21,980 bases of DNA from a virus (IMGVR_UViG_2700989365_000011), one strand, 5' to 3'; numbered from the stretch's first letter, positions 1 to 20,428 are shown. Translations and numbers: made by a program. Notes: generated by a model from the sequence alone, not told the origin.

Positions 1-1083
1 TCATTTTCTCTGGCTGATCTTTACCGGATAACCATCCCGAAGATCAATTAAGTGCTCCGGTTCAGAAGCAAACCATGCATAAGATCCCCACGCCAATTCT
101 GGTATTGCCTTTTTAAAAGGCAGAGCACTTCTGTCCATAAATGCCGTAAGGAATGCAAGATTTTTCTCGCTGAACCCAGCGTCAATAGCCAAATGAGTGA
201 GAGTAACTTTTCGTTCCCTGTTTATAGGCCCATCTGTCGCAACTACTTCAGTGAAAACTACAAGCATGTCCGAACCCGTTCGGTCCTCTCCCAAATCAAT
301 CAAAATAATATCTGGAAGTGCTTTTGAGGCATCAATATTCAGCCCCAATGCTTTTGCCAATACATCATCCTGAGCAACAACTTTATTCCCGGATTCAGAC
401 AACCAGAGCACAGTTGGATTCTTAAGAAAATTAGGAGCAAAAACTTCGATGACGGCCTTAGCTATTGTACTTGACGGGCCCGGAGCTAAAGTTCTCTTCT
501 CTCCATTTGGGAAAGTGACGACTACGGCATCAGCAGCAATCACTGCCCCTGATTTCAATAAACGCAACCTAGCAAGAGCGGCTTTGTTCAAATGATTTTC
601 TTGCCAGGAACTTATTGCACTCAGCAGCGAATCTCCTTCAAGCCCGGCATCAAAGAGTGCTGCAAAAGAGCGATTCAAACTGTAACGAGGACGAGAGGAT
701 GTGGTGGGTATACCTTTACGCTCAACAATTGCATTGCAAGGTATTAGGCCATTTTTTATAGTTTCATCACGTATTGGCTCACGCGTATTTTCCGCATACC
801 ATGCATCAGCAGGCCTTATCTTTTGTTTAGAGAAAGTCATCTTTACCCAGCTTTCTCTGGACGCATCATCAGTAAGAGCAGCCTGCGAATCTCCCATACT
901 TACAACCTGGCTGGGCCTTATCCATCGCCCCAGCCCCTCAACCGCACCAGCATAAAACATGACAAAAATTGTTTTTGCAGCTATTTCCCGAATTAAATAT
1001 CCACGATTCTCAGTCCCTTCAGGGAAAATTAATTGTAATCTTTCCCGGATAACATTCAATGGGGGAACAACAGGCAGATTCAT
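1..1083 (-). CDS. Putative type II restriction endonuclease, partner of the upstream methyltransferase (possibly BsuBI/PstI-like; family assignment uncertain)
   Basis: 360-aa ORF, complete (stop at 1-3). Its ATG overlaps the methyltransferase stop in an ATGA junction at 1080-1083, typical translational coupling of R-M pairs. No catalytic motif confidently identified by eye. Confidence 0.5.
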   Translation of the reverse strand: MNLPVVPPLNVIRERLQLIFPEGTENRGYLIREIAAKTIFVMFYAGAVEGLGRWIRPSQVVSMGDSQAALTDDASRESWVKMTFSKQKIRPADAWYAENTREPIRDETIKNGLIPCNAIVERKGIPTTSSRPRYSLNRSFAALFDAGLEGDSLLSAISSWQENHLNKAALARLRLLKSGAVIAADAVVVTFPNGEKRTLAPGPSSTIAKAVIEVFAPNFLKNPTVLWLSESGNKVVAQDDVLAKALGLNIDASKALPDIILIDLGEDRTGSDMLVVFTEVVATDGPINRERKVTLTHLAIDAGFSEKNLAFLTAFMDRSALPFKKAIPELAWGSYAWFASEPEHLIDLRDGYPVKISQRK

Positions 1084-2912
1084 GCAATCATCACTCCATA
1101 GAAACCAGCGATAGTTCTCTCAATAATCCGTCTGTGGACGCCAGCATCAATTAACGATTGAATCTCCATCACCTGCTCCAGAGAAGGCAACGGGATTGAA
1201 TTCAATTCATAGGCCGAAACAGCAACACTTCCGCTTATACACCTGAACGCCCGATCGACAACATGCGAATTAAGTAGCATATCAATAACATCAGGGCGAA
1301 CCGCAGAGAACAATCCGTTTGAATATACAATATTAATATGGTTTTCAACTACTACGCCACCAGTTTCATCTATAAATCCCTGAGGTAAAATTGCCGCTAA
1401 AATCCTTCTGTCCTGTTCCTTCGATGTTGTCCGCTGAACAAGCACACATTCAGATTTTGTCACAAGGAAACCCTGTTGTGGGGTTATATCGATATAGGGA
1501 ACATGATTTTTTCTGTCTGCACTAAAACGAAAACCAGCTGAAGTTATTGATTCCGCCCAGACTAATGGGTAGCTATTTTTTCCTTTCGTCGTACGCAACT
1601 GCGACTTAAATCGATTCCAGACTAACTGACCTGTAGAGACTGAGTATCCCAGATCAGCTAAACGCGTAGACATCTGTTTTAATACATTAAGAAAACAGGC
1701 ATCATCTTTAACGCGTGGCAAAAGCCACGTTGCTCCACCTTTTTCTATATCAACATTACCTATTTTCTCAATTTTTGCTTTGTTCAACCCCTTAGGGACA
1801 AGTGAGGATACCTGGGCCCGAACTTTATGTTCTCCCGCCTTGAATGCTGTCAACATTGTTTCCTGGAGAACATCGTCAAAGACCCCATCCCTGTCAGTGA
1901 CGAAATCAAGGGCATACGGAGTAGTTTTTTCGGTCAAAAGGGTTCGCAGCGCGGTGAAATACTGCCCACCAAGAAAAGAAGTTGGCGTAAGAAATGCAAT
2001 AACTCCTGTTTTCTCTTTAACCATGCGAACAGCTAAGTCGGTGAACAATCCATATAGATTTGCATGACCAAATAACGAACGAGAATATTTTTCTCTCGTT
2101 TTAATATCGAGAGTGACACGTCCGTAAGGCGGATTCCCTACCACAAGATCATAACCAGAAAATTTATCTTGCTGAAGCGCATCAGCAACAATAATTGTAT
2201 CTTCAGGCAATCTACGTTTTACCTTTACACATAGTGGCATTAGTACAGATTCGAGCAATACCAAACTCATCCAAGCCGCAAATGGATCGATCTCTATCCC
2301 CTTTAAACGACGACTGATTCTCCTCAACATCCATTCAGGGGAAGACCCCTTGTCTTTTTTTAACATTCGAATGGCTACTGGTGCCAAAAATGCACCGCCA
2401 CCACACGCAGGATCAATAACCGATGCATGAGAAAAATCAACACCAGACTTTTCAGCCAGGTCCAAGAGACGCGCTACCAAAGGTGGGGGGGTATAGTAAG
2501 CCCCCAATTCCGAACGGTAAGCGGATGGCAGCATTACCGTATAAATTGACCCAATCAGATATCCAGCGTCCTCCGCCGGAAATTGAGCAATAAGCTCACC
2601 TGTTCGTTCAGCGAGCTCGCGTGCATCACATGGAATGTCTTCTATGTAAACAGTGTGCGGTACTGCCCTCATTTTAATGCTGCTTTTTTGCTTTTTTGCA
2701 AGGGTATCCCAATATGCAGCTACGATGCTGAAGCAGTATGAGCGGGCATGCATCAACCTTGACTGCCCGGTTTTGTAATTGCCCGCATAACCTTTGGCCA
2801 TGGCTTTACAAGTTTGATATCTTTCCAGATTAGAAAACTCATTATCTGTAAAAAAATCAAAATGTTGCACATTCATAATGTAAAATCCTAATGTATCAAA
2901 CATGCGGGCCAT
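1080..2912 (-). CDS. N6-adenine DNA methyltransferase, gamma class
   Basis: 610-aa ORF with AdoMet-binding motif I (DPACGGGAFL) N-terminal to catalytic motif IV (VVGNPPYG). Motif order I then IV is the gamma-class arrangement; the long C-terminal region is consistent with a target-recognition domain. Confidence 0.85.
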   Translation of the reverse strand: MARMFDTLGFYIMNVQHFDFFTDNEFSNLERYQTCKAMAKGYAGNYKTGQSRLMHARSYCFSIVAAYWDTLAKKQKSSIKMRAVPHTVYIEDIPCDARELAERTGELIAQFPAEDAGYLIGSIYTVMLPSAYRSELGAYYTPPPLVARLLDLAEKSGVDFSHASVIDPACGGGAFLAPVAIRMLKKDKGSSPEWMLRRISRRLKGIEIDPFAAWMSLVLLESVLMPLCVKVKRRLPEDTIIVADALQQDKFSGYDLVVGNPPYGRVTLDIKTREKYSRSLFGHANLYGLFTDLAVRMVKEKTGVIAFLTPTSFLGGQYFTALRTLLTEKTTPYALDFVTDRDGVFDDVLQETMLTAFKAGEHKVRAQVSSLVPKGLNKAKIEKIGNVDIEKGGATWLLPRVKDDACFLNVLKQMSTRLADLGYSVSTGQLVWNRFKSQLRTTKGKNSYPLVWAESITSAGFRFSADRKNHVPYIDITPQQGFLVTKSECVLVQRTTSKEQDRRILAAILPQGFIDETGGVVVENHINIVYSNGLFSAVRPDVIDMLLNSHVVDRAFRCISGSVAVSAYELNSIPLPSLEQVMEIQSLIDAGVHRRIIERTIAGFYGVMIA

Positions 2913-3126
2913 AACATCTCATGGTGGCGCATAGCAAACTGGCCCGAAGAATATCACGCACCAAGTCGATCTCATAACCCGTTATGACAATAAATCTTTG
3001 TAGCTGAACTCACTTGGTGATTTGTCAATCATTCCTGGCCTCCAGTTCGTCCTGAATCTCTTTATCGAGTTCACCGTATTTGTTAGTCCTCATCACTCAC
3101 GACTTGACTTCCAGAAATAACCTTGA

Positions 3127-3483
3127 TTATTCGGGGCTATATTTTGTCACCCTGCGTATCCGCGCTTTCGCATTACGCTCAATCTGGATTAGCTTTTCTA
3201 TATTTTTTCGCCTTTCCCGCTCCTCCTGGCGCAAGAGCCTTACATCATCTGCCAGTCTGGTTTCTCTTTTCGCCACAGAGAGCATCCAGTCAAATGGCTC
3301 CACAACTGCACCGCAAATTTTACAGCGGACCTGACGCTCTTTTTCGTCAACCCGTACAGAGGCGTGATGGCAATATGGTCTTTCCGATGGCTCATAAAGA
3401 AAATTAACCTGATTACGAGGGTCATCCTCTTTTACCGGAAATAAAACGATATTGCTTAACTCATCTTCTGGTTTTATTTCCAT
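3127..3483 (-). CDS. Prophage protein of unknown function with Cys/His zinc-ribbon-like motif and basic coiled-coil C-terminus
   Basis: 118 aa from the ATG at 3483 (MEIKPEDEL...), with a GGAG-like Shine-Dalgarno upstream. The six-frame ORF extends to 3540 but that start abuts the upstream stop. Contains CHH...CKIC and an R/E/K-rich tail. No paralog in the Rac copy. Confidence 0.5.
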   Translation of the reverse strand: MEIKPEDELSNIVLFPVKEDDPRNQVNFLYEPSERPYCHHASVRVDEKERQVRCKICGAVVEPFDWMLSVAKRETRLADDVRLLRQEERERRKNIEKLIQIERNAKARIRRVTKYSPE

Positions 3484-3540
3484 GCTCCTCTCCTTTGATG
3501 CGAATGCCAGCGGTAATTGAAGCCTGATAGCTAATTTCAC

Positions 3541-3963
3541 TCACAGTACCGCCTCCTGAAAATCACCCTGATAGAAAGCCGGTACACGCTGCATAACTTC
3601 ACTCTTCCGGCACTCGCGACAGATTATGTTCTGATGTCTGTCGTAGCGGCGTATTTCTCCGTCCGGTAATGACCAGATAAGGTCCGGATCAACCACAGAT
3701 GGTTTCTTCAGCTTTGCCCTCGAGAGTTTTTTGCGGGCGTTTTGCCAGTCCTTACGCGCCTGTTCAGACGGGAATAACCCGTAGCCAGAGTTGTATACAT
3801 CCCCACTGGCAACCAGCTCTCTGGCGAGAACGCTTATTAAATATCTTGTCGCCCCGGTTTTAGCTTCCAGTTGTCGTAACGTCTCGCGCCCACTCTGGCG
3901 TACGAGTTCAACAACCTGCCCCTTAATTTTTTCCCGCTCTTCCTGTGTAAATACTTTTGCCAT
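3541..3963 (-). CDS. Conserved lambdoid prophage protein, unknown function
   Basis: 140 aa from the ATG at 3963 (MAKVFTQEE...), GGGGG Shine-Dalgarno upstream; the listed ORF start at 3978 is a TTG. Near-identical paralog at 10223-10639 except for the C-terminal ~12 residues. Confidence 0.6.
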   Translation of the reverse strand: MAKVFTQEEREKIKGQVVELVRQSGRETLRQLEAKTGATRYLISVLARELVASGDVYNSGYGLFPSEQARKDWQNARKKLSRAKLKKPSVVDPDLIWSLPDGEIRRYDRHQNIICRECRKSEVMQRVPAFYQGDFQEAVL

Positions 3964-3978
3964 AAGCGCCCCCGGCAA

Positions 3979-4704
3979 TCACTTTTCCGACACAATACGA
4001 CCGGAGGAATCGACAATCTGTCGAACAATATCCCGGTGCTTGTTCAGCTCCCGCAGCGCGGCGCAGACTCGCTCCCACTTCTGGACATGATTTTTCGCCC
4101 GACGCAGTTCGCGGTTTGCCATATGCAGCGATGGTAAAACCAGGTCATCCGCTTGCGTTTCGGTGAACGATGGCAACGACTGCACAATGTCCGCCACAGT
4201 TTCTGTTTTAATTTCTTCCTGTGTTGCAGCTTCCTGTACCGGTAACGCAACACCTGCTGGCTGAGGAAAGACTTTACCATCCGTTTCCGCTATGGATGCG
4301 GCTTTCGGCTCTGCCGGTAAATCAGCGCCCGGTATGCAGTACCGAAATTTACCGCCCTGATTCACGCGAATCAGACGCCCTTTGCTGATTGCCATGGCCA
4401 GCGATGAATTCGCCCGGCGGGAGGTAATCCCGAACATCAGTGCCAGCTCATCCGCCGTTTGTGGGCCATGTTGTTCAATCGCCTCAGTCAGCATTTGCGC
4501 TGTCACTTTCGGTACCGGTGACACTGGTTCACTTTCACCAGCCTGAATCAGCCACCACATCGAACCCTTGTTATCCGCTTCACCACGGCGCTTCAGTTTC
4601 CACAGTTCGTTGACCGCATCTTCACGGCTGATTCCAAGGCGGGACGCCACCACATGTGAAGAGGCTCTTTTCAGTGCTTTCAGTGCGTCAAATACAGTTT
4701 CCAT
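3979..4704 (-). CDS. Prophage protein with winged-helix-like N-terminal region, unknown function
   Basis: 241 aa from the ATG at 4704 (METVFDALK...), GGAGG Shine-Dalgarno upstream. The C-terminal ~115 aa are nearly identical to the paralog at 10655-11416; the N-terminal halves diverge. Confidence 0.6.
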
Positions 4705-4725
4705 TAAAACATCCTCCAACAAAAA

Positions 4726-5472
4726 TTACTTCACAACTCCCGGAAAGCTGACATTTGAACGCCAGCTATCCCAGTTAAACGTCACCCACCGACAACCGTT
4801 CATGGTCATGCGGTCCATAATCCTCTCACCAAGAAGCGTGCTCATTGCGGCATGATTCAGGTTTGTTAACATCCCGACACTGCACAGTGATGCTGTCCGG
4901 CGATCAATTATCTGGTGCAATACCACCTGCTCGTTTTTCGTCTCCCGCTGAATGCCTATTTCATCCAGGACCAGCAAATCAACCCCGCAAAGCTCCTGTA
5001 AAAATTTTTCACCGGATTTGCCGTTGTCGTAGCTGTCATGCAACACGCTCATGACATCAGACTCGGTGACGATAATCACGCTGCGCCCCTTCGCCATCAG
5101 CCGGTTACCCATCGCCGCTGCAAGGTGATTTTTCCCGGTGCCGGTTTTACCGCTGAACACAAAATTCGTGCACCCGGTCATCAGTTCGTCAGCTATGGAT
5201 TTGGCCTGGCTCAGCGCGTATTTTTGCCCGTCGTTCTGCACCTGATAATTCGCAAACGAGCATTTGCTGTGCAGAGGCTGGATGCCCGAACGATTCAGGA
5301 TTTTTTCCACCCGCAACTGGCGATTCTGGCGGTTAATCTCCTCGCTGCGTTTTCGTCCTTCAGCAAGTTGCCATTCCCGCCACTCCTCCACCGTCCGGTA
5401 CGGTGGAACCGCCCCCTGTGGTGCAAGTCTGTGAATACGTTCAAGAACCCCGGCTGCCGCAATGTTTTTCAT
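4726..5472 (-). CDS. DnaC/IstB-like AAA+ replicative helicase loader
   Basis: 248 aa with Walker A (GKTGTGKNHL) and Walker B (LLVLDEIG). Paralog of 11439-12185. Sits immediately downstream of the O-like gene, as lambda P does. Confidence 0.85.
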   Translation of the reverse strand: MKNIAAAGVLERIHRLAPQGAVPPYRTVEEWREWQLAEGRKRSEEINRQNRQLRVEKILNRSGIQPLHSKCSFANYQVQNDGQKYALSQAKSIADELMTGCTNFVFSGKTGTGKNHLAAAMGNRLMAKGRSVIIVTESDVMSVLHDSYDNGKSGEKFLQELCGVDLLVLDEIGIQRETKNEQVVLHQIIDRRTASLCSVGMLTNLNHAAMSTLLGERIMDRMTMNGCRWVTFNWDSWRSNVSFPGVVK

Positions 5473-5478
5473 GCCACA

Positions 5479-6549
5479 TCACCCCCTGAATCCCGGCGGA
5501 ATTTCGGTATCCGGTTCAGAAATATGATTCACACAACGCTGGTTGTTCGTGCCGCTTACCGGGAGCAACCAGGGGTTTTCAAAATTCCGGTCCGGCCCAA
5601 AAAACGTCGTCGCTCGCTGAACAAATTCCGTTCCCGCTTTCCCGGTCGCCGCCAGGTATCTCGCGTAACGCCTCACACCATCCAGCATGGTCTCTGGTGG
5701 CACCCCCTCGCGCAATCTGGCCTTCCAGGCACTGAATGCGGATTTCTTCGGGTTTGCCCCGGCACGCAACGGGTATTCCCGCCAGACCTGTTCGAACACA
5801 TCCGGATAATCCACTCGTCCCACAGGCTGCCCGGTGTTTTCCGGGGCTACCCGATCGGCTTCCCGCTGAATGGCGGAATCGGCTTCAGGCTGCTGCAGTT
5901 GGAGTGATTGCTCCGGCCTTGCGGTCATCACCTGCTGCACAGCGCCCGAATCGGCTTTCAGCGCATACGCTGAATCGGCTTCCGGTGTCGAGCCTGCTGG
6001 CTGACCAGGATTGACGGTCTGAACATCCCCTGCCTGGTTCGTGGCGTTTTTTACGCCATGGACCATAGTGTTTTGATCTTCTTTATCTGTATCTTTATCT
6101 GTATCTGTCGTGACTCGTCGTGACATGTGCGTGACATTTCGTGACGCGCCGTGACAATCGCCATTTTGTTCCCGCTTTCTTTCCCTCTCTCGCTGCGCCC
6201 TCTTGCGCTCTGCAGGAGATTTTGCGGTTTGCGAAATATTGCCGTTGTCCTCTTTAAGCACCTGGCGTTTTTCCCATCCAGTGATTAAATCACCATCAAG
6301 TACCCGCCCCTGCATCGTCTGCAAAATTGAATCAATTACCTCTTCTGTCACGTCGAGCGCACTTGCCAAATCTTCTGTCGTGACATCAATGTGACCTCGC
6401 GTGACATTTCGTGACGCGCTCACCAGGAGGTGGATATACACTGCCATCACTGTTGCAATTGGCTGCCCTGACACCCTGGCAATTGTTCGCCACTTAGGGT
6501 CATTTGGCATGTCATGCCATAATCTGAGCCAGGCGTTAGCCATACTCAC
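5479..6549 (-). CDS. Replication initiator, lambda O-like
   Basis: 356 aa, located between the YdaT-like gene and the DnaC-like loader. Contains internal iteron arrays. Shares only the C-terminal tail (AIPPGFRG) with the Rac YdaU at 12192-13049. Confidence 0.65.
   Translation of the reverse strand: MSMANAWLRLWHDMPNDPKWRTIARVSGQPIATVMAVYIHLLVSASRNVTRGHIDVTTEDLASALDVTEEVIDSILQTMQGRVLDGDLITGWEKRQVLKEDNGNISQTAKSPAERKRAQRERERKREQNGDCHGASRNVTHMSRRVTTDTDKDTDKEDQNTMVHGVKNATNQAGDVQTVNPGQPAGSTPEADSAYALKADSGAVQQVMTARPEQSLQLQQPEADSAIQREADRVAPENTGQPVGRVDYPDVFEQVWREYPLRAGANPKKSAFSAWKARLREGVPPETMLDGVRRYARYLAATGKAGTEFVQRATTFFGPDRNFENPWLLPVSGTNNQRCVNHISEPDTEIPPGFRG
6081..6155. repeat. Iteron array inside the O-like gene (putative replication origin), cluster 1
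   Basis: Tandem 12-bp CTTTATCTGTAT x2 (6081-6104) followed by five ~10-bp units each ending CGTGAC (6105-6155). Confidence 0.5.
6376..6419. repeat. Iteron array inside the O-like gene, cluster 2
   Basis: Four GTGAC-containing ~10-bp units. The 20-mer CGTGACATTTCGTGACGCGC at 6400-6419 is an exact copy of 6130-6149. Confidence 0.45.
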
Positions 6550-6614
6550 CTCTTCTGATACCGAATCTTTTTACTCACGAGTTGCCGGGAGCGATTCGAT
6601 ATGGCTATTGTCAG

Positions 6615-7040
6615 TCAATGTACTGCCACAGCATTTCCTGCCGGGCCACCACGGTTCATCTGATTGAAACCGGCGATTGCCACTGCGACAAAATCATCAG
6701 CGTCTCTCACCAGTCGTTCATGCGTCTCCACCAGTTCCCGAAAATAAGCTGAACTGTGGCTGCGCATTCGAGCCACCAGCGGAGGTGGCATTGCCCTTTC
6801 GATCGCAGGTAACAACGCCTGAATTTTTTCAACAGCGTCAGGGGTGTCTTTATCCAGCCAACGGAAAATCTTTTGGGTGTTGAGATAAAGCGTGTTGTGC
6901 TTGCTGTCGTTATGCAGAACCGGAAACGTCATTCCCAGTTCGAAATAAACCCTGGTTATTTCAGCTGCCGGAACTTTTTCACCGTCCGGATGCGCCCAGG
7001 CTTTCATCGCCATGCGGATGTGTTCATGCTTGATTTTCAT
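6615..7040 (-). CDS. YdaT-like protein (cII-position gene of Rac-type prophages)
   Basis: 141 aa starting MKIKHEHI..., the same N-terminus as the Rac-copy gene at 13062-13484. ATGA overlap with the upstream Cro-like gene. Confidence 0.7.
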   Translation of the reverse strand: MKIKHEHIRMAMKAWAHPDGEKVPAAEITRVYFELGMTFPVLHNDSKHNTLYLNTQKIFRWLDKDTPDAVEKIQALLPAIERAMPPPLVARMRSHSSAYFRELVETHERLVRDADDFVAVAIAGFNQMNRGGPAGNAVAVH

Positions 7041-7300
7041 GAATCAACCCCCGCCGATGGTTGTGTGTTAGCCTGAAACTCAGCAGGCAAGCCGTCAGTT
7101 GGGTTGGGGTAGGTTTTACTGTCAATCTCATGTGGGGTCACCACCCATCCCGTTGCTTCACACCAACGTAATATTTTTTCTCCTGTAAGTTTTGCACGCC
7201 CCGTTATAACGTGGCTGACCATCCCTTGGGATGCGCCAACAATCTCAGCAAATGAACTCTGGGTTATATGAAAATGATGCAAATATTCTCCAAGATTCAT
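7037..7300 (-). CDS. Cro/YdaS-like HTH regulator
   Basis: 87 aa from the ATG at 7300; the listed ORF start at 7327 is a TTG. Divergent from the cI-like repressor across an operator-containing intergenic region. Confidence 0.7.
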   Translation of the reverse strand: MNLGEYLHHFHITQSSFAEIVGASQGMVSHVITGRAKLTGEKILRWCEATGWVVTPHEIDSKTYPNPTDGLPAEFQANTQPSAGVDS

Positions 7301-7336
7301 AATCCGCCCTATGTGATGTGTTACCAATGCATAATT

Positions 7337-7376
7337 AATAGCACTGTTATTTTTAAAAGTAAATAGTGATACTATT
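7337..7376. promoter_or_regulatory. OR-like operator pair between Cro-like and cI-like genes
   Basis: Two 15-bp palindromes, AATAGCACTGTTATT (7337-7351) and AATAGTGATACTATT (7362-7376), centres 25 bp apart. Confidence 0.45.
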
Positions 7377-7411
7377 TCAAAGTGATTAGCAATCTTATTA
7401 GAATTGGATGT

Positions 7412-7912
7412 ATGAAAAGAAAATCATTGTCAGACACCGACCTCAACGCCGCCAGAAGACTGAAAGAAATCTGGATGGCAAAGAAATCTCAGTTGGGATT
7501 GACTCAGGAACGTGCGGCGGAAATTATGGGGTTTTCAACACAAGGGGCGGTAAGTCACTACCTAAATGGTCAAACCCCACTAAACCTTGAGGCTGTTCTA
7601 AAGTTTGCTGGCTTACTGAAAGTTCCCCCTGAGTCAATCAGGCCAGACATGGTAGATTTGCTGCAAATTGCAAGGATGTATTGTCGAGAACCACAGCAAG
7701 ATAACATAGTCGCATTACCAGCAGACACAGAACAAACAGAGGATGAACTACCGTTTGCCGTAGAGCCGATGGAACGAGATTTAATCCATACGTTCAGAGC
7801 TTTTCCGAAAGAAGATCAAGAACACATGCTTCAGGAGATGAAAGATAAAAAAGAATCAATGGATCGTACGGTTGCGCGGTGGTTAGCTGCACAAAAAGGC
7901 CGTCGCGCCTAA
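7412..7912 (+). CDS. cI-like XRE-family HTH repressor without a recognisable C-terminal S24 peptidase domain
   Basis: 166 aa from the ATG at 7412 (MKRKSLSDTDL...); a GTG at 7382 is an alternative start. HTH region LTQERAAEIMGFSTQGAVSHYLNG. Immediately upstream of the toxin-antitoxin pair, as in repressor-antitoxin-toxin operons. Confidence 0.75.
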   Translation: MKRKSLSDTDLNAARRLKEIWMAKKSQLGLTQERAAEIMGFSTQGAVSHYLNGQTPLNLEAVLKFAGLLKVPPESIRPDMVDLLQIARMYCREPQQDNIVALPADTEQTEDELPFAVEPMERDLIHTFRAFPKEDQEHMLQEMKDKKESMDRTVARWLAAQKGRRA

Positions 7913-7931
7913 ATCAGAGGAGATATGTAAA

Positions 7932-8126
7932 ATGAGTACAGTCCTTTCCCCAATGGTTTCAGAATTTGAGACAGTTGAGCAAGAAAATAGTTACAACGAA
8001 TGGCTGCGGGCCAAAGTAGCAGCAAGCCTCGCGGATCCCCGCCCGGCGATTCCGCATGATGAGGTAATGGCGGAAATGGAACAAATTATTGCCCAAATTG
8101 CTGCTGCAACTCACAGAGGTGAATAA
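7932..8126 (+). CDS. Antitoxin partnering the ParE-family toxin (PaaA/ParD-like)
   Basis: 64 aa, GAGGAG Shine-Dalgarno 8 nt upstream. Its stop overlaps the toxin ATG (TAATG at 8124-8128). Confidence 0.65.
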   Translation: MSTVLSPMVSEFETVEQENSYNEWLRAKVAASLADPRPAIPHDEVMAEMEQIIAQIAAATHRGE

Positions 8127-8416
8127 TGTTACCCGTTTTATGGCTACCATCTGCTCGTGATGATTTGCGCCAGATCGTAGCCTACATAGCTAAAGAAAAT
8201 CCCGCGGCAGCACGCAGAATGAAAATTCGAATTGAAACATCCGTTTTGCCGCTCACAGAGCATCCTTACCTGTATCCTCCAAGCGAGCGAGTTCTTGGTC
8301 TTCGTGAAATTGTAACTCATCCTAACTACATCATCCTTTACCGAGTAACAGCATCAAGCATAGAAGTAGTAAATATTGTGCATTCTCGAAGACAGTATCC
8401 AGGCAAAAACAGTTAA
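8126..8416 (+). CDS. parE: RelE/ParE-family type II toxin
   Basis: 96 aa with the characteristic C-terminal pattern ...IILYRV...IEVVNIVHSRRQ. Translationally coupled to the upstream antitoxin. Confidence 0.8.
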   Translation: MLPVLWLPSARDDLRQIVAYIAKENPAAARRMKIRIETSVLPLTEHPYLYPPSERVLGLREIVTHPNYIILYRVTASSIEVVNIVHSRRQYPGKNS

Positions 8417-8434
8417 TTATTCCCGCCGACAGAA

Positions 8435-8455
8435 CCACCTTAGGGTGGTTTTTTC
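8435..8455 (+). terminator. Rho-independent terminator after the toxin gene
   Basis: CCACC-TTAG-GGTGG hairpin followed by a T tract. Confidence 0.7.
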
Positions 8456-8472
8456 TTGCCCCAACAAAAAAC

Positions 8473-8515
8473 AATAGCGATGCTATTTACATCAAAAAAA
8501 AATAATGATGCTATT
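8473..8515. promoter_or_regulatory. OL-like operator pair upstream of the ydaF-like operon
   Basis: AATAGCGATGCTATT (8473-8487) and AATAATGATGCTATT (8501-8515), the same 15-bp motif family as the sites at 7337-7376. Confidence 0.45.
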
Positions 8516-8696
8516 GTTTCAGGCGTCAACCCACCCCGCCCCACAGAATGCAGGGCAATACTTCGAGTTACCAGACAGTGGTCAGGGGTTAAGTAGCCAG
8601 CCCGAGGCGTAAGAACATGACGGCAGGGTTCAATCTTTAACTATGCAGCAGGTTTTTTGTTCCGCCACCCCGGCGTTAAGGGGAAATGAGGTCAGC

Positions 8697-8849
8697 ATGG
8701 ATACTATCGATCTTGGCAACAACGAATCTCTGGTGTGCGGCGTGTTCCCTAACCAGGATGGAACGTTTACCGCCATGACGTATACCAAAAGCAAAACGTT
8801 TAAAACCGAATCTGGCGCGCGTTGCTGGTTAGCCAGAAACACTGACTGA
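8697..8849 (+). CDS. YdaF-like small protein (homolog of Rac ydaF at 14670-14825)
   Basis: 50 aa (MDTIDLGNNESLVCGVFPNQDGTFTAMTYTKSKTF...), about 85% identical to the Rac-copy YdaF. GAGG Shine-Dalgarno upstream. Confidence 0.7.
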   Translation: MDTIDLGNNESLVCGVFPNQDGTFTAMTYTKSKTFKTESGARCWLARNTD

Positions 8850-8860
8850 TGAGGCTGACG

Positions 8861-9226
8861 ATGGAATTTAAAGATTTACCGTCTGATGTACAGAAAACAG
8901 CAGCTCATACATTGCATTCTGTGCTGCGAGAAATCGGGAAAGATATTGCAAGCGAGCCAGCAAAAGATCTGGCCCGGAAAATCAAGACCGCTTTCGTTGA
9001 GCTTTATAATGTTGGCACTGACTCTGAAACTGTCGAGACCAAGACCGTAAGTTCACCAATATTCTCACTTGAGCCAAGCGTATTATCAGGTGAAATATGC
9101 ACCGAGATTTCCAGCGAACTGCTTCCGGTAATACGAGAAGCAATTCGCCGTCGCGGTTTGGATGGAAGTTATGATCATGACGTTCTGCAAGTTCTCAGGA
9201 CAATGGTGACTTCACTGGGGATTTGA
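8861..9226 (+). CDS. Unknown acidic, helix-rich 121-aa protein in the pL-like operon
   Basis: ORF from the ATG at 8861 with GAGG 6 nt upstream; the alternative ATG at 8849 overlaps the ydaF-like stop (TGATG). No counterpart in the Rac copy, and no family recognised by eye. Confidence 0.5.
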   Translation: MEFKDLPSDVQKTAAHTLHSVLREIGKDIASEPAKDLARKIKTAFVELYNVGTDSETVETKTVSSPIFSLEPSVLSGEICTEISSELLPVIREAIRRRGLDGSYDHDVLQVLRTMVTSLGI

Positions 9227-9373
9227 TCCCTGCGTCCTCTAAGCTTTTGATATAGCGGTCCTCCAAGAAGCGGTAAATTTTGTCGAAATCATCTTTTCCC
9301 TCTGGTTTATTCAGAGGATTACAGGACCCGTAAGTAGCGGCATACATTTCAACCGTTTGGTAATGACTCCAAC

Positions 9374-9877
9374 TTATTGATAGTGTTTTATGTTCAGATA
9401 ATGCCCGATGACTTTGTCATGCAGCTCCACCGATTTTGAGAACGACAGCGACTTCCGTCCCAGCCGTGCCAGGTGCTGCCTCAGATTCAGGTTATGCCGC
9501 TCAATTCGCTGCGTATATCGCTTGCTGATTACGTGCAGCTTTCCCTTCAGGCGGGATTCATACAGCGGCCAGCCATCCGTCATCCATATCACCACGTCAA
9601 AGGGTGACAGCAGGCTCATAAGACGCCCCAGCGTCGCCATAGTGCGTTCACCGAATACGTGCGCAACAACCGTCTTCCGGAGACTGTCATACGCGTAAAA
9701 CAGCCAGCGCTGGCGCGATTTAGCCCCGACATAGCCCCACTGTTCGTCCATTTCCGCGCAGACGATGACGTCACTGCCCGGCTGTATGCGCGAGGTTACC
9801 GACTGCGGCCTGAGTTTTTTAAGTGACGTAAAATCGTGTTGAGGCCAACGCCCATAATGCGTGCAGTTGCCCGGCAT
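9374..9877 (-). CDS. insB: IS1 InsB (transposase frame; InsAB' is made by frameshifting)
   Basis: 167-aa ORF overlapping the 3' end of insA in a different frame. Confidence 0.9.
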
Positions 9878-10071
9878 CCAACGCCATTCATGGCCATATC
9901 AATGATTTTCTGGTGCGTACCGGGTTGAGAAGCGGTGTAAGTGAACTGCAGTTGCCATGTTTTACGGCAGTGAGAGCAGAGATAGCGCTGATGTCCGGCA
10001 GTGCTTTTGCCGTTACGCACCACCCCGTCAGTAGCTGAACAGGAGGGACAGCTGATAGAAACAGAAGCCAC
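9796..10071 (-). CDS. insA: IS1 InsA
   Basis: 91 aa, [40 protein letters not shown]... Confidence 0.95.
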
Positions 10072-10126
10072 TGGAGCACCTCAAAAACACCATCATACAC
10101 TAAATCAGTAAGTTGGCAGCATCACC

Positions 10127-10137
10127 NNNNNNNNNNN
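10127..10137. other. Assembly gap (run of 11 N)
   Basis: N run directly abutting the IS1 terminus, the usual signature of a contig break at a repeat. Confidence 0.95.
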
Positions 10138-14524: not shown

Positions 14525-14659
14525 ATGGTGCATTACGAAGTAGTTCAGTATTTGATGGATTGTTGCGGTATCACTTACAACCAGGCTGTGCAGGCTTTAC
14601 GCAGCAACGACTGGGATCTCTGGCAGGCAGAAGTCGCTATACACAGCAACAAGATGTGA
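14525..14659 (+). CDS. ydaG: Rac prophage small protein YdaG
   Basis: 44 aa, MVHYEVVQYLMDCCGITYNQAVQALRSNDWDLWQAEVAIHSNKM. Confidence 0.75.
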   Translation: MVHYEVVQYLMDCCGITYNQAVQALRSNDWDLWQAEVAIHSNKM

Positions 14660-14669
14660 GATTCGCAAA

Positions 14670-14825
14670 ATGCAAAAAATCGACCTCGGCAACAACGAAT
14701 CCCTGGTGTGCGGCGTGTTCCCCAACCAGGATGGAACGTTCACTGCCATGACGTATACCAAAAGCAAAACATTTAAAACCGAAACTGGTGCGCGCCGATG
14801 GTTGGAGAAGCACACAGTAAGCTAA
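14670..14825 (+). CDS. ydaF: Rac prophage small protein YdaF
   Basis: 51 aa, MQKIDLGNNESLVCGVFPNQDGTFTAMTYTKSKTFKTETGARRWLEKHTVS. Convergent 4-nt overlap with sieB. Confidence 0.75.
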   Translation: MQKIDLGNNESLVCGVFPNQDGTFTAMTYTKSKTFKTETGARRWLEKHTVS

Positions 14826-15310
14826 CGATTAAAACGTCTACTCCTGCTGTTCCAGAATAACTTCATAAAATGGGAGTATTTTTCGGTGACGAGATAATAA
14901 GAACAGTTTGCGCTATCACTCTGATGTTGAATGATGCCCTTCCGTTCTAATTTTTTCATAACCGGGTTACGGCAAGGAGAAGTGATAATAAGATTTCCTG
15001 TTTTAAGGAAATCTTTAAATACAGCGATTTCTTTCTCAGATAAACGAAGCAATACTCGTTGCTCTGGTAGTAATGAATAATGCTTTTGAATATGTGCTCG
15101 CAATCTTGAGAAGGAAATGGCGACCACGAAAGAAAAGGCAAAAACGATAATCTGAAAGAGCCAAGGTATTTCAGTATAAGCATTGAATGCGACAGTAAAC
15201 TCTTTCGGTATCAGCCAGAGAGTGAGACCAAAAATGATAATCGTATACATAAGTATTTCGAGTGGCTCGTTAGCAAAAAGTTTCAACAATGGAGTAAATA
15301 CATCCAACAT
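14822..15310 (-). CDS. sieB: Superinfection exclusion protein B
   Basis: 162 aa from the ATG at 15310 (MLDVFTPLLKLFANEPLEILMYTIIIFGLTLWLIPK...), with hydrophobic membrane segments. Confidence 0.85.
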   Translation of the reverse strand: MLDVFTPLLKLFANEPLEILMYTIIIFGLTLWLIPKEFTVAFNAYTEIPWLFQIIVFAFSFVVAISFSRLRAHIQKHYSLLPEQRVLLRLSEKEIAVFKDFLKTGNLIITSPCRNPVMKKLERKGIIQHQSDSANCSYYLVTEKYSHFMKLFWNSRSRRFNR

Positions 15311-15751
15311 ATCAATAACTCTCAACTGTAAGGGTATTGAAATGTTAACACAAGCTCTCGCTGTAGGGGTATAGCCGAGACCACCGAAGCCCGGAGGTGG
15401 TGAAATAAAACCGGGCACAACACGAAGGCGCATTTCCGATATCCATAAAGAGTCGGTCTTGTCTGTTAAATTTAAATGGTGGGAGTGCGCCTCCGGTTGT
15501 AAATAACGACATTGCTGTGTGTAGTCCTGGCGGCATCAGTTTTTTTCTTGAAGTTCGGCTGATGTCCGCCCTTTTTAAAGTGAATTTTGTGATGCGGTGA
15601 ATGCGGCTAAGCGCACGTGGCACAGTTAAAAGTCATGTTAGTCCTTATTGGTTTGGGTGGGAAAGCCGACTGTAATTGTTAACTGGTTGCAGTCACCTGG
15701 AGGCACCAGGCACCGCATCAACAAAGTTCATTTGTAAAAATGGAGATAATT

Positions 15752-20052: not shown

Positions 20053-20247
20053 ATGAGATATGACAATGTTAAACCATGTCCATTTTGTGGTTGTCCATCA
20101 GTAACGGTGAAAGCCATTTCAGGATATTACCGAGCGAAGTGTAACGGATGCGAATCCCGAACCGGTTATGGTGGAAGTGAAAAAGAAGCACTCGAACGAT
20201 GAAATAAACGAACCACTGGAAATAATAATGGAGGTGTTCATGTATAA
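20053..20247 (+). pseudogene. ralR: ralR (restriction-alleviation protein / type I toxin) interrupted by an in-frame TGA at 20200-20202
   Basis: Reads MRYDNVKPCPFCGCPSVTVKAISGYYRAKCNGCESRTGYGGSEKEALER then TGA. The same frame continues NKRTTGNNNGGVHV to a TAA at 20245-20247 that overlaps the ydaC ATG, so a 64-aa ancestral ORF is evident. Confidence 0.6.
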
Positions 20248-20428
20248 AATTACCGCCACTATTGAAAAGGAAGGTGGCACTCCTACTAACTGGACAAGAT
20301 ATTCAAAATCTAAACTAACGAAATCAGAATGCGAAAAAATGCTCTCAGGTAAAAAAGAAGCAGGCGTTTCCAGAGAGCAGAAAGTAAAACTGATAAATTT
20401 TAATTGCGAGAAACTTCAGTCCTCGTGA
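20240..20428 (+). CDS. ydaC: Rac prophage small protein (ydaC position)
   Basis: 62 aa from the ATG at 20240 (MYKITATIEKEGGTPTNWTRYSK...), GGAGG Shine-Dalgarno 5 nt upstream. Symbol assigned by synteny. Confidence 0.6.
   Translation: MYKITATIEKEGGTPTNWTRYSKSKLTKSECEKMLSGKKEAGVSREQKVKLINFNCEKLQSS

Follow-up and report, generated by a model that had tools for sequence, protein, structure and literature searches.

Which gene was cut when IS1 entered the early region of this prophage, to which operon did that gene belong, and what may it do together with its neighbour on the other strand? The DNA analysed here, hereafter the window, is a viral stretch of 21,980 nucleotides (IMGVR_UViG_2700989365_000011), and the locus in question occupies positions 8697-9358. 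A sequence-only reading had described this locus as the pL-like operon of the left prophage, composed of a ydaF-like gene, an uncharacterised 121-aa gene and a convergent open reading frame truncated by IS1. Here, we recovered the intact form of the truncated gene, orf66, assigned the region to a dicBF operon, and defined a convergent cassette to which a promiscuous head domain is fused in E. coli and Shigella; these three points are what the analysis adds. Judged by the gene content and order of its relatives, the region belongs to a degraded lambdoid prophage of Shigella sonnei and is the promoter-proximal stump of its dicBF operon, a pL-like operon of the Qin/mEp460 type.

The operon is preceded by two OL-like operator palindromes of the AATAGCNNNGCTATT type, located at 8473-8487 (AATAGCGATGCTATT) and 8501-8515 (AATAATGATGCTATT). 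Related operator-like palindromes are found at 7337-7351 and 7362-7376, between divergent cro-like and cI-like HTH genes, and Pfam recognizes HTH_3 proteins at 7382-7912 and 7037-7327. The window contains six palindromes of this type, where chance would give 1.03. A scan for consensus sigma-70 promoters gave none on the plus strand at the OL-like operators, and for this reason we infer the operon promoter rather than locate it. The first gene of the operon (8697-8849, plus strand) is a ydfA/ydaF-like gene with 90% DNA identity to ydfA of K-12. Its 50-aa product is a DUF1391 protein (Pfam PF07151; phrog_751), which matches positions 1-47 of the 48 in the profile with an E value of 1.3e-28 and 98.9 bits, the gathering cut-off being 27.3. 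The HTH repressor with its divergent cro-like gene, the shared operators and ydfA in first position together make the upstream half of a Qin-type dicBF operon. The operators before the first genes, the ydaF homologue and the pL-like character of the operon, all claimed in the sequence-only reading, are therefore confirmed, the last in that these genes are promoter-proximal in an early-left operon under repressor control. Between the repressor gene and the OL-like operators, segment 7932-8416 encodes a toxin-antitoxin module, with a 64-aa antitoxin of the PaaA2 type (Pfam E 3e-23) and a 96-aa ParE toxin (E 1.8e-17). A hairpin with a T-run at about 8433-8455, missing from the terminator scan list, resembles by eye a terminator of this module.

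The second gene, orf121 (8861-9226, plus strand, stop codon 9224-9226), encodes a 121-aa protein that is WP_001320327-like and has the UniRef name Ybl81. Its ATG is located 11 nt past the stop codon of the ydfA-like gene, with a GAGG 8 nt upstream of it. The protein is a full-length match to phrog_33007 (E 4e-80), and the exact protein of the window is recorded as Shigella sonnei in more than 1000 contigs. It had been called acidic and without counterpart in Rac, and this holds: its pI is 5.16, with 19 Asp and Glu residues against 14 Lys and Arg, and tblastn finds no second copy in the window, the Rac-like right prophage included. Alignments and profile searches describe orf121 as a fusion of two domains, a promiscuous head of about 52 residues and a C-terminal domain of about 45 residues (the C-domain), of which only the latter is tied to orf66. 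The head comprises residues 1-52 (8861-9016) and the C-domain residues 74-121 (9080-9223), both on the plus strand; the linker between them, residues 53-73, is of low confidence in the AlphaFold2 (AF2) model. This model consists of two helical hairpins, and its confidence is low, with a pLDDT of 58 for the whole and below 50 for the linker. In a profile search of 1.84 billion representatives, the head domain was found in 94 clusters at 50% identity, most of which match the N-terminal ~50 residues only. It often stands alone, in proteins of 50-66 residues, or is joined to unrelated tails, with examples in Stx phages. The C-domain is rare in the same search, and its pN/pS of 0.2-0.5 indicates that it is constrained. 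A relation of the head domain to archaeal histones was rejected, as its E value of 0.044 in PDB and NCBIfam is below any threshold.

The remnant of orf66 is located on the minus strand at 9195-9358 and overlaps orf121 by 32 nt (9195-9226). Its stop codon is at 9195-9197, codons T14 to S66 occupy 9198-9356, and 2 nt of codon K13 are left next to IS1. The earlier description of a 55-codon minus-strand frame was right about the frame, and the quoted peptide (TVEMYAATYGSCNPLNKPEGKDDFDKIYRFLEDRYIKSL...) is an exact match to the minus strand; its numbers are corrected here to 53 codons plus 2 nt, with the stop codon as given above rather than near 9192. The view that IS1 disrupted a convergent gene and left this frame as its 3' remnant was substantiated when a megablast search of complete E. 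coli genomes, along the line that the same reading had proposed, found the intact, IS1-free locus and with it intact 66-aa homologues. The intact gene encodes 66 residues (WP_000159335), is found at positions 5670-5870 of the relative L001 and also in BL21, and is a full-length match to phrog_34441 (E 1.5e-50). IS1 has removed only the first 13 codons of orf66, but its ribosome-binding site and leader went with them, and orf66 is therefore a pseudogene in the window. The sole in-frame start codon remaining, M17, has no evident ribosome-binding site. Two S. sonnei database entries (P0028 and P0029) are exactly the same IS1-fused remnant. A 17-nt inverted repeat (GCGAACTGCTTCCGGTA / TACGAGAAGCAATTCGC) is present at 9114-9148, within the coding sequence of the orf121 C-domain; by manual base-pairing, it pairs better in the minus-strand RNA, where G-U replaces a C-A mismatch. 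This repeat was considered as a stabiliser or terminator at the 3' end of orf66 and rejected, as it is not conserved in L004, L005 or L010.

The intact relatives reveal the operon to which these genes belong. The annotated genes of ETEC4090 and BL21 are, in order, DUF1391, the 121-aa WP_001320327, the convergent 66-aa WP_000159335, dicB, ydfD, an exonuclease, xis and int. The complete order is thus operators, ydfA, orf121, orf66 (convergent), a long leader with dicF, dicB, ydfD, a recE-like exonuclease, xis and int, and phage mEp460_ev081 has the same arrangement with 99.6% identity. The intact orf66/orf121 cassette is present in 399 of 5426 complete E. coli genomes, among them BL21(DE3), in which the loci are ECD_RS08095 and ECD_RS08100; it is also intact in E. 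coli C. Rfam places DicF at L001 6147-6198, between the 66-aa gene and dicB. In the window, where IS1 begins at 9359, Rfam found no DicF and matched only RalA (20246-20424). The window therefore holds a truncated member of the dicBF family, since the downstream half (DicF, dicB, ydfD) is missing from it while present in the intact relatives.

The dicBF operon of Qin in K-12 has the order ydfA-ydfB-ydfC-dicF-dicB-ydfD (Balasubramanian et al. 2016, PMC5069750; Faubladier et al. 1990, as cited in PMC5069750), and joint induction of dicF and dicB reduces the viability of E. coli more than 100-fold (PMC5069750). Like that operon, the one described here is a repressor-controlled early operon with ydfA first (at the 90% DNA identity given above), and from L001 position 5929 on the intact relatives match it at 97% identity through the leader, dicF, dicB and ydfD. 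However, the place of ydfB and ydfC is taken by orf121 and by a gene of opposite orientation. The immunity also differs, with a 176-aa HTH repressor that has its own operators, and with the PaaA2-ParE module; in the window itself, dicF, dicB and ydfD are missing due to IS1. Homology with K-12 covers ydfA, is interrupted after it and sets in again 58 bp before the start of orf66. The mosaic module that replaces ydfB-ydfC of K-12 is therefore about 610 bp long and consists of orf121, orf66 and a 58-bp leader.

The IS1 copy of the window (9359-10126, minus strand) is complete. It has the 768 bp, the inverted repeats and the insA/insB' genes of IS1, with insA at 9796-10071 and insB' at 9374-9877, both on the minus strand, and is 99.7-100% identical to other IS1 copies, of which the homologous ones match Zn_ribbon_InsA and DDE_Tnp_IS1 in Pfam. 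Its IRR (GGTAATGACTCC) begins at 9359 and abuts the orf66 remnant, and the reverse complement of IRL (GGCAGCATCACC) ends at 10126. Directly 3' of IS1, 11 N in a row (10127-10137) mark either a gap in the assembly or masked sequence. Over positions 1-10126, the window is 99.9% identical to closed chromosomes of about 4.8 Mb; past IS1, these carry a truncated ynfF (ynfF') or other DNA, and not the Rac-like prophage. Because these chromosomes continue differently after IS1, the juxtaposition of the left and right prophages across the N-run may be a scaffolding join. For the same reason, namely that closed chromosomes run from IS1 into ynfF' or other sequence, IS1 is read as associated with a deletion that took the 5' end of orf66, dicF and dicB as well as the remainder of the prophage. 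The IS1 junction of the window was in no complete E. coli genome searched. In the window, ydfA and orf121 are intact and still located behind the operators, and the cassette is inactive in this genome.

A second IS1 was observed at essentially the same site of orf66, in the opposite orientation, in L069 (IMGVR_UViG_2671181094_000004, positions 3972-4030, compared with 9345-9370 of the window). L069 keeps the 5' part of orf66, the leader and dicB, and its IS1 flank has a 10-nt stretch, AAACGGTTGA, in common with that of the window. The two junctions were considered as the two sides of one simple IS1 insertion, which cannot explain both, because both abut the same IS1 end (IRR). Either the AT-rich orf66 site is a hot spot for IS1, or it was once flanked by an inverted pair of IS1 copies. 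Two restriction-modification genes are located in segment 1-2912 of the window, at the other end of the left remnant; one encodes a 360-aa restriction endonuclease of the BsuBI/PstI type, the other a 610-aa Eco57I/N6-methylase protein. Just past them, closed genomes have a further IS1 copy (L070 237-934), so the left prophage remnant is bracketed by IS1 copies.

Is orf66, where it is intact, a real gene? It is short, has no domain match and partially overlaps another gene, as a chance open frame or an annotation artefact might. That reading is effectively refuted by the way the sequence has been kept. Across five lineages, the orf66 frame is the only one of the six without stop codons, and the length of its homologues is retained at 65-66 residues down to 54% identity. 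Its pN/pS of 0.37 is the lowest, while four of the five other frames are at about 1. The mirrored antisense frame has a pN/pS of 0.43, but it contains stop codons in every lineage. The Nei-Gojobori dN/dS of orf66 is 0.11-0.32, with dS saturated. In the relatives, orf66 is preceded by a ribosome-binding site, AAGGA or GGGAGG. The AF2 model of Orf66 is a helical hairpin, with helices at residues 3-22 and 31-54 and a pLDDT of 79. The protein is hydrophilic (GRAVY -0.68), with a maximum 19-residue hydropathy of 0.31 and no membrane-like segment. These patterns of conservation indicate that orf66 and the C-domain of orf121 are real genes under purifying selection.

In 65 of 65 loci that have a complete orf66, from about five lineages and three prophage contexts, the C-domain ORF is convergent with it and their 3' ends overlap. 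The first context is the early-left operon of E. coli and Shigella, where the C-domain follows ydfA. In the second (L004 and L012, with orf66 57% and 54% identical), the C-domain is carried on a different N-terminus and its gene is the first after an S24-type cI. In the third, which is found in Cedecea (L005 and L006, orf66 73% identical), the C-domain is a standalone ORF between cro and cII, with its own AGGAGA ribosome-binding site in L005. The identities of orf66 and the C-domain drop in parallel (91/88, 88/79, 73/62, 57/36 and 54/36%), and the N-terminal part is swapped or absent. Mosaic breakpoints are located in the linker of orf121 and just upstream of the orf66 leader, and never between the C-domain and orf66. 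These comparisons define the C-domain ORF and orf66 as a conserved cassette that has moved as a unit among the three contexts. Co-inheritance of overlapping genes is partly a trivial outcome of adjacency, and the independent cassette lineages are only about five, with no more divergent orf66 lineage found in the genome, viral and metagenome collections. One divergent protein with both head and C-domain (P0054, in L011) has no overlapping orf66 3' end up to the point where its contig stops. The idea that Orf66 and the C-domain are paralogues was rejected by hhalign.

In Cedecea L005 (3568-3897, minus strand), the C-domain ORF has no stop codon after ...SLG and continues antisense through the whole of orf66; this 109-aa extension, predicted as P0127, is not conserved elsewhere. 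The two proteins of the cassette are those recorded as phrog_33007 and phrog_34441, as WP_001320327 and WP_000159335, and under the name Ybl81, and are the same in BL21(DE3), ETEC4090 and mEp460_ev081. The PHROG, RefSeq and UniRef entries are without function, and they do not record the pairing, the domain structure or the selection analysis; in the papers searched, we found no mention of Ybl81 or of the two WP accessions.

A block, GGTGGTATCCTT, is conserved in all lineages 40-50 nt 5' of the start codon of orf66. One reading takes it as an extended -10 element (TGnTATCCT), another as an arm of the second of two predicted hairpins, which would sequester the Shine-Dalgarno sequence; within the leader, the promoter reading concerns TGGTATCCT and the hairpin reading the anti-SD arm. 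On the leader, RNAalifold gives 16 pairs, 4 of them with compensated changes, and a weak covariation term. Consensus scans found no promoter or terminator of orf66, the conserved block included. Some conservation of the form C.TTC.T..T...T..CCT was also observed 5' of the module boundary (L001 5929-5960 compared with L004 and L005; alignment A4, columns 59-85), in DNA that is also present in K-12 between ydfC and dicF. Because conservation runs into this shared DNA, part of the leader or promoter region of orf66 may have survived in K-12.

The position of orf66 invites comparison with sieB. The right Rac-like prophage of the window has a DUF1391 gene (14670-14825, plus strand) followed by a convergent SieB gene (14822-15433, minus strand; Pfam SieB, E 3e-31), the two overlapping by 4 nt, and the remnant does hold the position that sieB has in Rac, as the sequence-only reading had it. 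Orf66 thus shares with sieB of Rac, lambda and P22 (PF14163), a gene for superinfection exclusion that lies within the early-left region, the slot and the orientation, convergent and just 3' of the DUF1391 gene region. It is equally true that the remnant is unlike SieB. SieB has about 160-200 residues, whereas Orf66 is a hydrophilic helical hairpin of 66 residues with no Pfam match at E ≤0.1 apart from a sub-threshold zinc-ribbon, and there is no relation in sequence or fold. Furthermore, sieB lacks a dedicated convergent partner domain. The right prophage also contains the RalA antitoxin sRNA (minus strand; Rfam RF02694, 225 bits), a 77-aa ORF at the position of KilR and an 866-aa protein at that of RecE. 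Upstream of its ydaF, a 44-aa YdaG-like ORF (14525-14659, plus strand) matches the UBA-like family UBA_4 in Pfam (E 3.2e-5, above the gathering score).

In lambda, the cII mRNA and the oop antisense RNA form a convergent regulatory pair with overlapping 3' ends. The cassette resembles this pair in that an early gene close to the immunity region would have its 3' end covered by an antisense transcript, and in Cedecea the cassette is even located between cro and cII. It differs in that the antisense partner encodes a conserved protein and no terminator-defined short RNA is evident. An identification of the C-domain as lambda CIII was rejected (hhalign probability 0.15%, and no Pfam match).

Searches by family gave nothing usable on function from Pfam, NCBIfam, PADLOC or PHROGs, and with PADLOC-DB 2.0 defence models no family was matched at E ≤1 by the six proteins tested. 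Searches by structure, with PDB sequence profiles and with AF2 models compared by Foldseek to PDB and BFVD, gave nothing either. The profile search of 1.84 billion proteins found no function, and a profile of the C-domain only gave nothing significant. The 121-aa protein, for which such a structural check had been proposed, matches no known structural or housekeeping family and stays uncharacterised. What can be said about function must come from arrangement. The C-domain gene is always on a repressor-controlled early transcript, of pL or pR type, and orf66 is always antisense to it, in all three contexts. An exclusion or anti-defence role, as suggested by the sequence-only reading, may apply and would follow from position.

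We tentatively favour, as the best explanation of the whole, the anatomy described above combined with an antagonistic or partner relation between the two proteins; the mechanism taken by itself is held with less confidence. Because orf66 is always antisense to the early transcript and has its own ribosome-binding site and a conserved leader, it would be expected, also by analogy with sieB, to be expressed from the repressed prophage, as a moron-like gene in the sieB slot. The C-domain protein would be made from the early lytic transcript. On induction, convergent early transcription and antisense pairing at the 3' end would silence orf66, and the C-domain protein would counter, or partner with, the Orf66 product. 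Both are predicted to be short helical hairpins and could form a small bundle. The likeliest roles would be superinfection exclusion, or the buffering of leaky toxic early genes. In its boldest form, which we consider unlikely, the pair would be an undescribed two-protein prophage switch, with a hairpin protein of the lysogen and a tail-to-tail early-lytic protein; through mutual antisense transcription and protein-protein neutralisation, an activity in exclusion or host modulation would be tied to the lysis-lysogeny state, and the switch would be mobile between pL and pR operons.

The two genes might instead be unrelated accessory genes, orf66 an autonomous moron with an exclusion or host-modulating role (sieB-like in function, not in family) and orf121 an independent early host-takeover protein, their overlap reflecting tight packing and inheritance in small blocks. 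Early regions of lambdoid phages are indeed mosaics in which small genes are independent of one another, the orf121 head is freely joined to other tails by recombination, and the C-domain homologue of L011 is found without an overlapping orf66 end. The sieB and ydaF genes of the right prophage are likewise convergent, with their 4-nt overlap, and have no known functional coupling. Yet breakpoints never split the C-domain from orf66 in three unrelated contexts, down to identities of 36% and 54%, and we regard independence as somewhat unlikely. The constant antisense orientation of orf66 can also be read at the level of RNA: its promoter would fire against pL or pR, and transcriptional interference together with antisense pairing would hold down any leaky expression of the toxic distal genes dicF and dicB, the proteins being secondary. 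In E. coli, orf66 lies between the early promoter and these two genes, the induction of which costs the viability cited above (PMC5069750), and the conserved non-coding leader block would suit such a brake. A pure RNA device would not need the protein-level purifying selection seen on both ORFs, however; scans gave no terminator or promoter, the inverted repeat at 9114-9148 is not conserved, and this reading is distinctly improbable.

An addiction pair also comes to mind, since the two genes are very small, strictly linked and placed in an immunity region of a prophage, with genuine toxin-antitoxin modules nearby (PaaA2-ParE, and RalR/RalA in the right prophage). In such a pair, the toxicity of one small protein would be neutralised by the other one or by its antisense transcript, and the prophage would thereby be stabilised. 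The possible leader hairpin that sequesters the Shine-Dalgarno sequence is typical of type I toxin mRNAs. However, unlike in a type II system, the genes are convergent and not co-transcribed, and no toxin-antitoxin or defence model was matched in Pfam, NCBIfam or PADLOC. As for type I, an antisense overlap is present but no discrete RNA gene was found, and neither the C-domain nor Orf66 is hydrophobic, the GRAVY of the latter being unlike that of type I toxins. Moreover, orf66 has been lost in S. sonnei and interrupted in L069 while its partner was kept. We regard an addiction pair as very improbable. An antagonistic or partner pair, held as tentatively as stated above, is what we prefer to these alternatives.

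For Shigella sonnei, the locus provides a clean example of IS1 disarming a prophage. The toxic dicF and dicB functions and an accessory gene of the lysogen side were lost through IS1, while the immunity region, the ParE toxin-antitoxin module and the restriction-modification system were kept. For dicBF operons in general, the segment between ydfA and dicF can hold an antisense gene, which matters for studies of dicF and dicB expression outside K-12. For lambdoid phages, the work defines a small, conserved and mobile two-gene cassette beside immunity regions, where exclusion, anti-defence and host-takeover genes occur. As BL21(DE3), E. coli C and mEp460_ev081 all carry the cassette intact, the hypotheses on its function are cheaply testable.
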